A stretch of 64,000 nt of DNA from Escherichia coli (GCF_009931435.1 NZ_CP043414.1); one strand, 5' to 3'. Shown: positions 16,926-21,604, counted from the first letter of the stretch. The notes: generated by a model from the letters alone, not told the origin. Translations and numbers: made by a program.

Positions 16926-17735
16926 GTGGCACATAACGCAAAAGGGCAGGGGCTGATCCTCGACAATGTTTCTGCCGGGTATCACAAGAAAATCATTGTT
17001 GATGGTGTTTCTTTCTCCGTTCCCACAGAAAAAATGACCGTTCTGGTTGGGGCAAACGGCTGTGGAAAGTCGACGCTGCTCAGCACCATTGCTCGTATCT
17101 TGCATCCCATGGGCGGTTCGATATTGCTTGATGGCAACGCGATTCACGAGCAACCAACGAAAGCGTTATCCCGTAGACTTGGGATCTTGCCGCAGTCGCC
17201 ATTATTGCCGGAGGGCTTAACCGTTTATGAACTGGTGTCGCGTGGGCGTTTTCCCTGGCAGAATTTCATTCGTCAATGGAGCGACGCCGATGAGCTGGCG
17301 GTAGAAGAGGCCCTGAAATTAACGGGTACGCAGGAGTTTGCACATTTACCTGTTGAAAAACTCTCTGGTGGGCAGCGCCAGCGTTGCTGGATTGCGATGG
17401 TGTTGGCGCAAAAGACGCCTTATATCCTGCTGGATGAACCCACAACCTGGCTTGATTTACGTTATCAGGTTGAAATTCTTGAGTTATTACATGATTTAAC
17501 GCGTCATCACGGGCGTACAGTCGTCGTGGTGTTGCATGATCTGAATTTTGCCGTCAATTATGGCGATACGTTGATATTTTTACGCCAGGGGAAAGTGGTG
17601 CGTGTGTTGAATGAGGGGGAGCATTGCACGCCTGAGCTGGTAAAAGCGGTCTTTGACGTTGATGTTCACGCATCAATAAATCCTCTGACGGGAAAGCCGT
17701 TCTTCATGCCGTTTCGTGGTGTAGAAAAAGTATGA
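16926..17735 (+). CDS. ABC transporter ATP-binding protein (FecE/FhuC-like)
   Basis: ORF track 269 aa from GTG; Walker A GANGCGKST, signature LSGGQRQR, Walker B ILLDEP; start codon uncertain. Confidence 0.8.
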   Translation: MAHNAKGQGLILDNVSAGYHKKIIVDGVSFSVPTEKMTVLVGANGCGKSTLLSTIARILHPMGGSILLDGNAIHEQPTKALSRRLGILPQSPLLPEGLTVYELVSRGRFPWQNFIRQWSDADELAVEEALKLTGTQEFAHLPVEKLSGGQRQRCWIAMVLAQKTPYILLDEPTTWLDLRYQVEILELLHDLTRHHGRTVVVVLHDLNFAVNYGDTLIFLRQGKVVRVLNEGEHCTPELVKAVFDVDVHASINPLTGKPFFMPFRGVEKV

Positions 17736-18715
17736 TGCGCACAGGGCTGGTTACTGTAATTTTCCTCGCCTTACTGCTGGTGGGATGCGTGGTATATCCA
17801 GGGATTGGTGCCCGATTTATTGCACCACAAACGGTGTTGCAGGCATTTCTTCATTTTGATCTGCAAAACTTCGATCACAACGTAATTGTAAGACTCCGTT
17901 TGCCGCGTTTAGCGGCAGCATTGCTTACCGGTGCTTCTCTTGGCGTTGCTGGTGCTTTGTTGCAGGCTGTCATTCGTAACCCATTGGGGGAGCCACATAT
18001 TTTAGGCTTAAATGCCGGAGCCGCTCTTGCTGTCGTTGCCGCCAGTGCGCTTGGACTGGCCTTTCCGATTGGACGCCCACTGCTGGCATCTACGGGGGGC
18101 GCGTTATTGTTCCTGTTGATATTGCTGCTTTCCTCCGCAGGGCGTTCAGGGTTAACGCCAATGAAAGTTACTTTATGCGGCGTGGCGCTATCGGCGTTCG
18201 TGTCCTCAATAACGGCTGCAATCCTGATTCTTGACGAACAAACACTGCTGGCGATGCGGACATGGCTAGCAGGTGATTTAGCGGGGCAGGATTGGGCGAC
18301 GCTGGGTACGTCCGCCTGGTTTTCTCTGGGGGGATTTGTGTTAGCCCTTTACCTTGCACCCTCCCTTAACATGTTGGCACTGGGCGATCGCATGGCGCAG
18401 GGGCTGGGCGTCTCTGTATTCCGCACGCGAACATTCACCCTGCTTGCGATCGCGTTGCTCTGTGGCGCAGCCGTATCGATTGCTGGCCCCATTGGTTTTG
18501 TCGGCCTGCTAGTACCGCAGATTGTCCGGCGTCTGGTATCAGCGGATCTGCGCGTTCTGCTCCCTCTTTCAGCTTGTGTCGGCGCACTTTTGTTATTACT
18601 GGCAGATATTATTGCCCGTACGCTTTTCACGCCCCATGAGTTAGCGACCGGTGTCATGACGGCGTTAGTTGGTGCGCCTGTTTTTGTCATTATGGCGACG
18701 AGGATGTTCAAATGA
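17732..18715 (+). CDS. Iron-siderophore ABC permease (FecCD family)
   Basis: ORF track 327 aa; polytopic membrane protein; start overlaps ATPase stop. Confidence 0.8.
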   Translation: MMRTGLVTVIFLALLLVGCVVYPGIGARFIAPQTVLQAFLHFDLQNFDHNVIVRLRLPRLAAALLTGASLGVAGALLQAVIRNPLGEPHILGLNAGAALAVVAASALGLAFPIGRPLLASTGGALLFLLILLLSSAGRSGLTPMKVTLCGVALSAFVSSITAAILILDEQTLLAMRTWLAGDLAGQDWATLGTSAWFSLGGFVLALYLAPSLNMLALGDRMAQGLGVSVFRTRTFTLLAIALLCGAAVSIAGPIGFVGLLVPQIVRRLVSADLRVLLPLSACVGALLLLLADIIARTLFTPHELATGVMTALVGAPVFVIMATRMFK

Positions 18716-19771: not shown

Positions 19772-20719
19772 ATGCGTTTATTTTTTTCTCTGCTGATACT
19801 GTTGTCATTTTTTTCCCGTGCAACAGAACCTGTTCAGGTATTTACTGATGATTTAGGGCGCAAAGTCACTGTTCCTGCTCATCCAAAGAGAATTGTCTCT
19901 TTACACGATCTTGATATCACTATTCCTCTGATTGAGCTCGGTGTACCTCCTATCGCCAGCCACGGGCGAACTCGGCCTGACGGTAGCCATTTCATTCGAT
20001 CTGGCGCGTTATTGACAGGTGTCGACTTTGATAATTCATCGATCGCCTTTATTGGTACCGCTGATATTGATATTGAAGCGATTGTGGCGGCAAAGCCTGA
20101 CCTGATCATCACAGAACCGACCCGTAATACGCCCATTGAACAACTTGAAAAAATTGCGCCCACGGTGAGCATTGATCATCTCAAAGGGGGCGCGCCAGAA
20201 ATCTATCGCAAGCTGGCAGAACTTACAGGAACGCAGTCGCAGCTGGCGATACTTGAACGCCGCTATCAGGCACAAATCAATGCGCTGAAGGCGACGCTGG
20301 ACAGCCAAAAAATAACGGTATCGGTGATTCAGGCAAACCAGGGAAAAATTAATGTGATGCATAGCTATCATTCGCTGGGGCGGGTATTACGCGATGCTGG
20401 TTTTCGTTTTCCGCCGCTGATTGAGAGCATTCCTGAAGGTGGGCGAATGGATGTGAGCGCGGAGCGTTTACCTGAACTGGATGCCGATTTTGTTTTTGCA
20501 ACCTGGCGCGGTGACACCGGGGGTAAACCTCAGGATGAGCTGGCAGCAATGGAAAAAGTCATGCCGGGATGGTGTCAGTTTCTGACTGCCTGTCGTTCCG
20601 GGCGTTATGTGCTGATTTCTCGTGAAGAGGCAATTTCTAACTCCTTTGCATCTCTGGGGCTGATGGCTGCGCAGATACAATCACAAATTGCAGGGCGACC
20701 TCTACCGGAGGCTAAATGA
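19772..20719 (+). CDS. Periplasmic substrate-binding protein (FhuD/FepB-like)
   Basis: ORF track frame 19709..20719; start chosen at ATG 19772 (MRLFFSLLILLSFFSRA signal peptide) with SD ggag. Confidence 0.8.
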   Translation: MRLFFSLLILLSFFSRATEPVQVFTDDLGRKVTVPAHPKRIVSLHDLDITIPLIELGVPPIASHGRTRPDGSHFIRSGALLTGVDFDNSSIAFIGTADIDIEAIVAAKPDLIITEPTRNTPIEQLEKIAPTVSIDHLKGGAPEIYRKLAELTGTQSQLAILERRYQAQINALKATLDSQKITVSVIQANQGKINVMHSYHSLGRVLRDAGFRFPPLIESIPEGGRMDVSAERLPELDADFVFATWRGDTGGKPQDELAAMEKVMPGWCQFLTACRSGRYVLISREEAISNSFASLGLMAAQIQSQIAGRPLPEAK

Positions 20720-21604
20720 TCCAGAAAGATAAAGCGCGGGTTGATATTTTTGGTGAGCGTTTTCGCACTCGCGCGAGTCAGTTAACGCCTGGGTTAAGAG
20801 CTGTCGCCAGCTACATTAATGAGCATCGTGAAGTGGTACTCGAGCAAACGGCGATGGAAATTGCGGCCACGTTGAACACTTCCGATGCCACAGTTATCAG
20901 GGCTATACAGGCCCTGGGGTTTGCCGGGCTGCGTGATCTGAAACGCACTCTGGAACAGTGGCTTGGTCCAGCCCTTAGTTCCAGCGAAAAGATGTCTACG
21001 ACGGTGAGTAACTTGACGAGCGATGTTAACACCGCAATCGACTTTGTTCTTGAAGGGCATTTGTATACCTGTAATGTCCTGTCAGAGCCTGAAAACCGCC
21101 ACGCGCTTGCGCAAGCTGTAGCGTTGTTGGTGCAGGCACGGCAAGTCGCAATTTTTGGCATTGGCGCTTCGGGTATTCTGGCGGACTATACCGCACGACT
21201 ATTCAACCGCATAGGTTTGCCTGCCACGGCACTAAACCGTACGGGTATTGGCCTTGCCGAGCAACTGATCGCGCTTCAACGTGGCGATGTTCTGATCATG
21301 ATGGCGCAAAAATCTGCGCACCGGGAAGGGGTGACAACGCTTCGTGAGGCGAGGCGGCTGGGGAATCCCTGTTATTTTGCTGACAAACGCGCTGGATTCA
21401 CGTTTTAGCAAAGACGCCAGTATCGTGATTCATGTTCCGCGCGGGGATGAAAAAGGGAAAACGCCGCTACATGGTACGGTATTGTTGTGTCTGGAAATGA
21501 TTGTCTGGTCGGTAGCTTCCGCAGTGCCGCAGCGTGCGGTTAAAACCATTAAGCGAATTAACGATTTCCATCGAGGACTGAAAACGGGAAGAAAGAATGG
21601 CTAA
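20716..21604 (+). pseudogene. RpiR/SIS-family transcriptional regulator, apparently frameshifted
   Basis: N-terminal ORF 20716..21408 (HTH plus first part of SIS domain) ends ...REARRLGNPCYFADKRAGFTF; the SIS C-terminus continues in another frame (ORF 21344..21604, ...GIPVILLTNALDSRFSKDASIVIHVP...); a single-base indel near 21361..21372 would fuse them. Confidence 0.55.

Follow-up and report, generated by a model that had tools for sequence, protein, structure and literature searches.

FitR of the Escherichia coli fit siderophore-uptake locus: a predicted operator beside Fur-box-like sequences and a probably non-canonical effector pocket in an RpiR/SIS-family repressor

We analysed a 64,000-nucleotide stretch of Escherichia coli chromosome (the window; all coordinates are counted from its first letter) and identified at 14411-21604 the fit locus, which lies between parE and ygiN as an inserted accessory cassette for TonB-dependent siderophore uptake. 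From 12455 to 22575 the order is parE (plus strand), fitA (minus strand), a 373-bp intergenic region, fitBCDE-fitR (plus strand), and ygiN and mdaB (minus strand). This identity follows from gene order together with RefSeq annotation, from the match of FitE to Protein Data Bank (PDB) entries 3BE5 and 3BE6, and from the published description of six fit genes (PMC2593036). Open reading frames (ORFs), Pfam families and the RefSeq annotation of a 99.3%-identical locus agree on the same six-gene layout, in which the receptor gene is divergent from genes for an ATP-binding cassette (ABC) ATPase, two permeases, a binding protein and a regulator. An initial annotation of this DNA had described a siderophore-type importer with an RpiR/SIS regulator at 16926-21604, and both the ORFs and their Pfam families bear it out; that span leaves out the divergent fitA and the 373-bp regulatory region of the unit. 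The genes and the downstream element are as follows.

14411-16552, minus strand: fitA, TonB-dependent siderophore receptor of 713 amino acids, with Pfam domains Plug (PF07715) and TonB_dep_Rec_b-barrel (PF00593); the RefSeq annotation agrees.
16926-17735, plus strand: fitB, ABC transporter ATPase of 269 amino acids (Pfam ABC_tran), named after PMC2593036.
17732-18715, plus strand: fitC, FecCD-family permease of 327 amino acids (Pfam FecCD, E = 1e-88).
18724-19761, plus strand: fitD, FecCD-family permease of 345 amino acids from the RefSeq start (the ORF opens at 18712; Pfam FecCD, E = 6e-78).
19772-20719, plus strand: fitE, periplasmic siderophore-binding protein of 315 amino acids (Pfam Peripla_BP_2).
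20716-21604, plus strand (ORFs 20716-21408 and 21344-21604): fitR, RpiR/MurR-family regulator with HTH_6 and SIS domains, a pseudogene in this window.
21617-21641, plus strand (hairpin 21617-21632): terminator-like hairpin and T-run between fitR and the convergent ygiN, a pattern match from a consensus scan.

The importer is complete in its parts, with one Peripla_BP_2 protein, two FecCD permeases and one ABC_tran ATPase by Pfam. These are the component families of FhuBCD, FepBCDG and FecBCDE, but unlike those systems Fit reaches no NCBIfam equivalog cutoff: the nearest models for FitB are FecE, FepC and FhuC, all of which it scores under cutoff. Residues 19-315 of FitE match 3BE5/3BE6 with E = 3e-195 (phmmer), and 3BE6 is cited under the name Ec-FitE (PMC10553834). 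FitA passes the NCBIfam siderophore-receptor subfamily model TIGR01783 (375 bits; cutoff, 223.5) and reaches the cutoff of none of the receptor equivalogs FhuA, FoxA, FhuE, Fiu and FecA, its best equivalog scores being 237 against a cutoff of 884 (PRK14050), 230 against 803 (FhuA) and 167 against 1300 (FoxA). Its closest relatives in the PDB are FoxA, FetA and FhuA.

Of 5426 complete E. coli genomes, 1870 carry the cassette, fitR included, CFT073 and O157:H7 among them, and the window copy shows 97-99% DNA identity to annotated E. coli copies (including those of these two strains) at the same chromosomal site, parE / fit / ygiN-mdaB. Among the same 5426 genomes, only two strains, RMDEC465 and 2020CK-00188, match the fit region of the window at 99.3% identity, and for the core genes (the tolC-parE region, window 1-14400) the best identity is only ~98.1-98.5%; complete genomes thus sample the lineage of the source strain poorly. 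A Shigella origin was considered on account of the fitR pseudogene, but the 64 kb contain no repeats of at least 60 bp, as two or more insertion sequence copies would give.

The regulator gene is co-operonic with the importer, as had been proposed in the initial annotation, because the fitR ATG (20716-20718) overlaps the fitE stop codon (20717-20719), a GGAGG Shine-Dalgarno sequence lies just before it, and the terminator-like hairpin follows downstream. A separate promoter for fitR in E. coli was considered and is ruled out by the codon overlap. In the receptor-only arrangement found in other genera (described below), fitR shares the divergent regulatory region.

The initial annotation had also implied that the SIS domain needed repair, and the lesion could be located. 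Using as reference the intact 295-amino-acid allele of RMDEC465, the closest complete genome, the alignment places one extra A at ~21364-21365 (GGGGAATCCC in the window, GGGGATCCC in the intact allele). The frame breaks after residue 216, and by the secondary structure of the AlphaFold2 model described below this deprives the SIS domain of its final two strands and of its C-terminal helices. Judged by its reading frame, the window encodes no functional FitR repressor and FitR is probably inactive in this strain; alleles elsewhere are intact. Because the E. coli fitR alleles sampled align one base shorter than that of the window, and the lone exception checked (strain 446) has an intact fitR, the frameshift is either rare or a sequencing error. 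It would leave the cassette in this strain under Fur alone and modestly derepressed, and the coupling of regulator to importer is probably broken here. The +1 frameshift, absent from the sampled complete genomes, sets the window apart from the Fit system of Ouyang and Isaacson, with which it otherwise shares the six genes, their order and the chromosomal site.

An earlier paper of theirs on the Fit system reportedly appeared in Infection and Immunity in 2006. Their 2008 study assigned fitA to the receptor, fitB to the ATPase, fitC and fitD to the permeases and fitE to the binding protein, and described FitR as having both helix-turn-helix (HTH) and sugar-isomerase domains (PMC2593036). In that work over-expressed FitR repressed fitA and fitB, recombinant FitR shifted a 347-bp fitA-fitB intergenic fragment when tested by electrophoretic mobility shift assay (EMSA), and lacZ, quantitative reverse-transcription PCR and EMSA data established FitR, which is made from the operon that it represses, as an autorepressor acting independently of Fur (PMC2593036). 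Derepression was 23-fold in a fur mutant, 2.2-fold in a mutant of fitR and 52-fold when both genes were mutated, the fitR value ranging from 2.2 to 4.9-fold with assay and comparison (PMC2593036). FitR is therefore a secondary layer and no replacement for Fur. The coupling of an RpiR/SIS protein to the importer, raised from the sequence, is correct in that FitR represses fitA and fitB on its own account; Fur also represses them, with the larger effect. The 2008 authors described the FitR operator as still unmapped and cited Fec as the sole self-regulated iron system of E. coli (PMC2593036).

The Fit substrate is still reported as unknown, enterobactin having been excluded, and fitA is iron-induced in Klebsiella pneumoniae ST258 (PMC5907654). 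FitA has been called a "potential iron-ferrichrome receptor", on domain grounds only (PMC9409007), and the locus is enriched in extraintestinal and adherent-invasive E. coli (PMC9409007, PMC5907654). A literature search for the Fit substrate, for links between RpiR proteins and siderophores, and for non-phosphosugar RpiR effectors, as for DguR and HpxU, returned nothing usable, and it returned no data on sugar phosphate binding by FitR altering its affinity for DNA. The regulator-importer pairing, the HTH plus sugar-isomerase architecture and repression by FitR were already published in 2006-2008 and are not new. The pairing is real and conserved, but its architecture was noted in 2008 (PMC2593036).

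To search for regulatory elements we aligned the intergenic region from four genera (E. coli, Kosakonia, Raoultella and Sodalis). Mean column identity was 59%, and within this background lay a few invariant blocks: ATGTAATTGAGAATCATTCAA (16649-16669), TGTAGTAGTAAA (16681-16692), whose flanking sequence varies, and TTGACTACTACATT (16843-16856), which is the reverse complement of the TGTAGTAGTAAA-containing block save for one base. A further block, GAGAATGAG..TTATTTTT (16879-16897), was partly conserved. An Rfam scan of 14000-22600 found no RNA family, so a riboswitch or small RNA does not explain the conserved blocks. We read the region as containing the following elements, of which the two promoters were proposed from cross-genus conservation and not from a sigma-70 consensus scan.

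16651-16669, no strand assigned: Fur-box-like sequence 1, GTAATTGAGAATCATTCAA, matching the 19-bp Fur consensus at 12 of 19 positions and overlapping the predicted fitA -10.
16681-16717, plus strand: predicted FitR operator site 1, TGTAGTAGTAAA-N20-CTACA, an interrupted inverted repeat whose TGTAGTAGTAAA core is invariant across genera.
Minus strand: predicted fitA promoter, -35 TTTACT (reverse complement of AGTAAA at 16687-16692) and -10 TTGAAT (reverse complement of 16664-16669), with a 17-nt spacer, from sequence reading.
16843-16856, minus strand: predicted FitR operator site 2, AATGTAGTAGTCAA (plus strand TTGACTACTACATT), containing the predicted fitB -35.
Plus strand: predicted fitB promoter, -35 TTGACT (16843-16848) and -10 CAAACT (16866-16871), with a 17-nt spacer, from sequence reading.
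16879-16897, no strand assigned: Fur-box-like sequence 2, GAGAATGAGTTTTATTTTT, which agrees with the Fur consensus in 13 of 19 positions and lies immediately after the predicted fitB -10.

At the position of the fitB -10 the other genera have CAAAAT (Kosakonia), CATGAT (Raoultella) and TAAGAT (Sodalis). A search for the 19-bp Fur consensus with at most three mismatches gave no match; Fur-box-like sequence 1 is also conserved beside a different receptor in Pantoea, Serratia and Erwinia.

The distribution of the invariant core was then examined in a census of the 80 best species-representative Enterobacterales loci with a FitR orthologue (tblastn; at least 66% identity). The core TGTAGTAGT[AC]A has 132 matches across these loci, against 1.3 expected by chance, and is found in 75 of them, the other five being contigs that are truncated or carry a one-base variant. 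In 72 of the 80 it forms a composite with a Fur-like box, in the order Fur-like box, 6-8 nt, TGTAGTAGTAAA, and this order is kept beside the second receptor type of the reduced arrangement. CTACA lies exactly 19-20 nt downstream of the core, on the receptor side, in 54 of 74 loci; core and CTACA together make an interrupted inverted repeat, TGTAG-N27-CTACA, with about three helical turns from centre to centre. The window contains only two copies of the motif, both in the fitA-fitB intergenic region. Beyond the orthologues, the motif precedes the operon of a homologue of 45% identity (L008) and flanks a homologue of 42% identity (L010) on a contig that has no receptor, an indication that the motif goes with the regulator and not with the receptor promoter.

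From this pattern of conservation, TGTAGTAGT(A/C)AA is likely to be the FitR operator, overlapping the predicted -35 of both divergent promoters. FitR would then block the -35 while Fur covers the -10/+1 at each promoter, and the two repressors could act additively with no competition for the same bases, an arrangement that fits the multiplicative genetics reported for the mutants (PMC2593036). Across species (loci L011-L090) the two inverted motif copies tend to lie 163, 175 or 184-185 bp apart; the steps are of about one helical turn each and would be compatible with phase-constrained looping by a tetrameric RpiR protein.

We next consider the domain that would receive a signal. Intact FitR carries HTH_6 at residues 15-81 (PF01418, E = 5e-10, 39.6 bits against a cutoff of 28.3) and SIS at residues 138-247 (PF01380, 52.6 bits against a cutoff of 25). 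An AlphaFold2 model of the intact protein (predicted local distance difference test score, 92.8) had as its top Foldseek neighbours Pseudomonas aeruginosa RccR with 2-keto-3-deoxy-6-phosphogluconate (KDPG; 8K3B/8JU9), Vibrio vulnificus NanR with N-acetylmannosamine 6-phosphate (ManNAc-6P; 4IVN), Streptococcus pneumoniae NanR, the SIS domain 3SHO (target template-modelling score, 0.82-0.84) and E. coli MurR, which binds N-acetylmuramic acid 6-phosphate (MurNAc-6P; 7EN7). In this model the SIS fold is canonical, and FitR has in common with RccR, NanR and MurR the HTH_6 and SIS domains, the fold, and action as a repressor that binds near promoters. FitR differs from them in its target, which is an iron-uptake cassette with the operator predicted above and not sugar catabolism, and in its phosphate site.

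RccR binds the KDPG phosphate through four serine hydroxyls (S139, S183, S185 and S188) and two amides (Q184 and S185), and a quadruple Ser-to-Ala mutant loses the KDPG response (PMC11014249). The corresponding FitR residues in a phmmer alignment are S152, A197, K199 and H202, so that the clamp is cut from four serines to one, that of the GxGxS loop, and the phosphate loop reads MAQKSAH in FitR against ISQSGRS in RccR and VSSSGST in V. vulnificus NanR. Among nine orthologues of 69-88% identity, M195, M196, Q198, K199, S200, H202, R203, E204 and G205 of this loop (MMxQKSxHREG) are invariant and position 197 holds Ala in seven of them and Gly in the other two; because of this invariance we regard the loop as being under selection and not in decay. 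A library search found 4109 relatives, of which 101 full-length ones were inspected, and the canonical SxSGx[ST] loop occurs in none of the 101, down to ~26% identity. Relatives of about 40% identity or more to FitR carry QKSxH-like loops, and a large sister group at 26-40% identity (P0129-P0269) carries "AYGRxYxE" in place of SxSGx[ST], together with a conserved "PRG...ALH" segment. The gene neighbourhoods of sister-group members at 30-40% identity lay mostly on short contigs and were uninformative. By the evidence of these loops FitR is a member of a non-canonical RpiR branch. The step from SIS domain to phosphosugar ligand, which had been taken from the family assignment, thus fails at the level of residues: with three of the four phosphate-clamping serines replaced and the Lys and His invariant, a classical phosphosugar effector does not appear to be supported, although we hold this conclusion with lower confidence than the predicted operator. 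Two observations on related proteins may be recorded here: the structural-genomics domain 3SHO has a similarly non-canonical loop, VSVWRYLRD, and a NUDIX domain is fused to one protein of the sister group (P0135).

Orthologues with 66-81% identity to FitR were found in Enterobacter, Kosakonia, Phytobacter, Citrobacter, the Klebsiella oxytoca group, Raoultella and Kluyvera, and further in Erwinia, Pantoea, Tatumella, Serratia, Sodalis and others. In 79 of the 80 census loci fitR adjoins fit ABC genes and/or a TonB-dependent siderophore receptor, a pairing far beyond chance. Three arrangements account for these loci. In 57 of the 80, fitE is followed directly by fitR; in two, which have an extended form, fitE and fitR are separated by genes for a PepSY_TM protein and a pair of PstS-family proteins; and in 20, which have a reduced form without ABC genes, fitR stands divergently from another type of receptor with 35-38% identity to FitA. 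At the one remaining locus (L086) the receptor has apparently decayed. The reduced form, exemplified by L054 (6445-9870) and L069 (5271-9870) and seen at 18 further loci, belongs to Pantoea, Serratia, Erwinia and Tatumella; its receptor was confirmed by Pfam, and Pantoea adds a Peripla_BP_2 gene. Kosakonia, Raoultella, Sodalis and Erwinia have all six genes together but within flanking DNA that is unrelated, from which we conclude that the cassette moves as a unit. Sodalis (L004) has fitBCDE-fitR together with a receptor of the second type, which shares 71% identity with that of Serratia; this indicates that receptors are swapped under one regulator.

In none of the three arrangements, whose flanks differ in every genus, is the cassette accompanied by a sugar kinase, phosphotransferase system (PTS) or sugar-catabolic gene, and no siderophore biosynthesis genes were seen in any variable flank examined. 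Across the 80 loci FitR orthologues track TonB-dependent receptors and not carbohydrate genes. Hence the linkage to sugar uptake or catabolism that a phosphosugar-sensing regulator would lead one to expect is not what we find, the regulator being linked to receptors and/or FecCD ABC genes instead, and nothing pointed to the sugar-bearing ligand or the tie to carbon status that the initial annotation had suggested.

More distant homologues and variant cassettes were also seen. The gene for the 45%-identity homologue is the last of an operon that also encodes a receptor, an ATPase, two FecCD permeases, a Peripla_BP_2 protein and two PstS-like proteins. A homologue of 52% identity (L007, 9001-9897) stands alone, lacking receptor, ABC genes and the TGTAGTAGT motif; its loop is MMGQASAHSEG, and it lies beside a resistance-nodulation-division (RND) efflux pump and a GntR-aminotransferase regulator. 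The 42%-identity homologue, with the loop "AYGDAYPE", lies on an 11-kb metagenomic contig between inverted TGTAGTAGTCAA copies (696-709 and 1861-1874), where no TonB-dependent receptor or ABC importer is near and the neighbours are Rrf2, response-regulator, PAS and CheB genes. Four census cassettes (L051, L055, L056 and L085) gave no FitA-like tblastn match upstream of fitB (E <= 1e-10 over at least 40% of FitA), and in the only one of the four inspected further, that of Tatumella ptyseos (L055, 1500-5200), no receptor-sized ORF lies upstream of fitB either. Both motif copies are kept in L051, L055 and L056 and one in L085, from which it follows that the ABC genes and regulator can persist without a cognate receptor. 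Extended cassettes were noted at L005 (6007-9004) and also at L047 and L052, with related extra genes at L008 (7010-8946). The PepSY_TM protein of the extended cassettes resembles a FoxB-like reductase, its best PDB match being 7ABW, which we take to be the FoxB siderophore reductase. The two PstS-family (phosphate-binding-protein-like) paralogues directly upstream of fitR, at 7143-9004 in L005, have no signal peptide at their N-termini as read by eye, and they have lost part of the canonical phosphate-binding residues, SST of P. aeruginosa 4PQJ being AAQ in the L008 homologue.

Taken together, these results favour, as a probable though far from certain account, that FitR at the fit locus is an operator-bound second repressor beside Fur and that its effector is more likely a substrate-type compound than a phosphosugar. 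FitR, made from the fitBCDE-fitR operon, represses the bidirectional fitA/fitB region alongside Fur-Fe2+, whose effect is the larger one. What releases FitR may be the substrate once imported, or a derivative of it, probably an anionic xenosiderophore, which would give the logic "iron-starved AND substrate-present". The cassette is never beside siderophore biosynthesis genes in the flanks examined, so it is best regarded as an orphan importer of xenosiderophores, a role also supported by the FoxB-like reductase of the extended cassettes. Since such importers are usually substrate-induced, and since FitR tracks receptors and has a basic and conserved pocket, release by substrate seems to us more plausible than response to a phosphosugar, although we infer this with less confidence than the rest. 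The pocket of FitE is reportedly lined with arginine, which would hint at an anionic siderophore.

Several points weigh against this account. The Fur-box matches of 12-13 of 19 are weak by sequence alone, 95 sites in the window scoring as well, and scanning the intergenic region with a sigma-70 consensus called neither of the two promoters proposed here nor any other. The predicted operator on the fitB side is non-palindromic, and since the predicted operator overlaps the -35, promoter constraint contributes to its conservation. The reported effect of FitR is small (2-5 fold). On the side of the effector, K199, H202 and R203 are basic and could still bind phosphate, all ligand-bound structural neighbours of FitR bind sugar phosphates, and the two PstS-family proteins beside fitR in extended cassettes could hint at phosphate chemistry.

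A bolder form of the same account is possible but is put forward only tentatively. FitR-type proteins might constitute a distinct, Enterobacterales-restricted RpiR branch in which a rebuilt pocket (Ser, Ser, Ser replaced by Ala, Lys, His, with an invariant Arg) senses an imported non-phosphorylated, probably anionic xenosiderophore or its iron-free product, and they would then be a new class of siderophore-responsive repressor controlling interchangeable receptors through a composite FitR-operator/Fur-box module.

That FitR instead senses a phosphorylated sugar, either because a Fit substrate sugar is phosphorylated after import or because expression is tied to central carbon status, seems unlikely to us. 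The SIS fold is genuine, the nearest solved relatives (RccR, NanR and MurR) bind sugar phosphates, S152 of the GxGxS loop is kept, the three basic residues could contact a phosphate, and PstS-like proteins accompany the extended cassettes. Set against this are the replaced serines, the invariance of K199 and H202 in the clade, the lack of an SxSGx[ST] loop in the FitR relatives examined, to ~26% identity, the absence of sugar kinase, PTS or sugar-catabolic genes from the cassette in all arrangements, and the association of the orthologues with TonB-dependent receptors rather than carbohydrate genes.

We judge it equally improbable that FitR has no effector and is a negative-feedback autorepressor that damps and stabilises expression of the cassette once Fur is lifted, its SIS domain serving only for oligomerisation. 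Such a role would suit the modest repression, for which no inducer is known, the degenerate phosphate site, the place of fitR as the last gene of the operon that it represses, and the fact that fitR is dispensable enough to be frameshifted in this strain. However, the replacement loop MMxQKSxHREG is invariant at 69-88% identity, which speaks for selection on a binding site and not for decay, RpiR relatives use the SIS pocket for allostery (PMC11014249), and xenosiderophore systems are typically substrate-induced, as Salmonella FoxR illustrates (PMC9804782). Least likely of all is a non-sugar oxyanion ligand (a phosphate-, phosphonate- or sulfate-containing metallophore or a breakdown product) handled in the cytoplasm by the PstS-like proteins, for although the pocket is basic and the signal-peptide-less PstS-family pair stands directly upstream of fitR in the extended cassettes and in the operon of the 45% homologue, PstS-like genes are missing from E. 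coli and most genera, where FitR and its operator are nonetheless kept, the PstS-like proteins have lost some phosphate-binding residues, and no known siderophore class fits.

Substrate release of a Fur-independent second repressor, the reading that we prefer, has parallels in known systems. FoxR of Salmonella is one of a kind of regulator that also includes PchR, YbtA and AlcR. As with FitR, a dedicated one-component regulator stands beside a TonB-dependent xenosiderophore receptor (FoxA) and acts atop Fur repression (PMC9804782). FoxR differs in being an AraC/XylS activator stabilised by desferrioxamine, whereas FitR is an RpiR-family repressor. Sigma/anti-sigma surface signalling of the FecIRA type likewise adds substrate-specific control to Fur, and Fit resembles that system in being an accessory ferric-chelate importer with FecBCDE-like ABC components. 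However, there are no extracytoplasmic function (ECF) sigma or anti-sigma genes at Fit, and FitA (713 amino acids) presumably has no N-terminal signalling extension, its N-terminus having been read by eye; sensing would be cytoplasmic.

What is new here is the predicted FitR operator, the non-canonical effector pocket suggested by the alignments, and three conserved arrangements with swappable receptors. The predicted operator and the pocket residues K199, H202 and R203 make the questions of the Fit substrate and the FitR signal directly testable. Should the transported compound prove to be what FitR senses, a reporter driven by PfitB in a fur background would be a biosensor for the Fit substrate, and FitR would be the first member of the RpiR/SIS group for which reading of a siderophore, and not of a sugar phosphate, had been shown.

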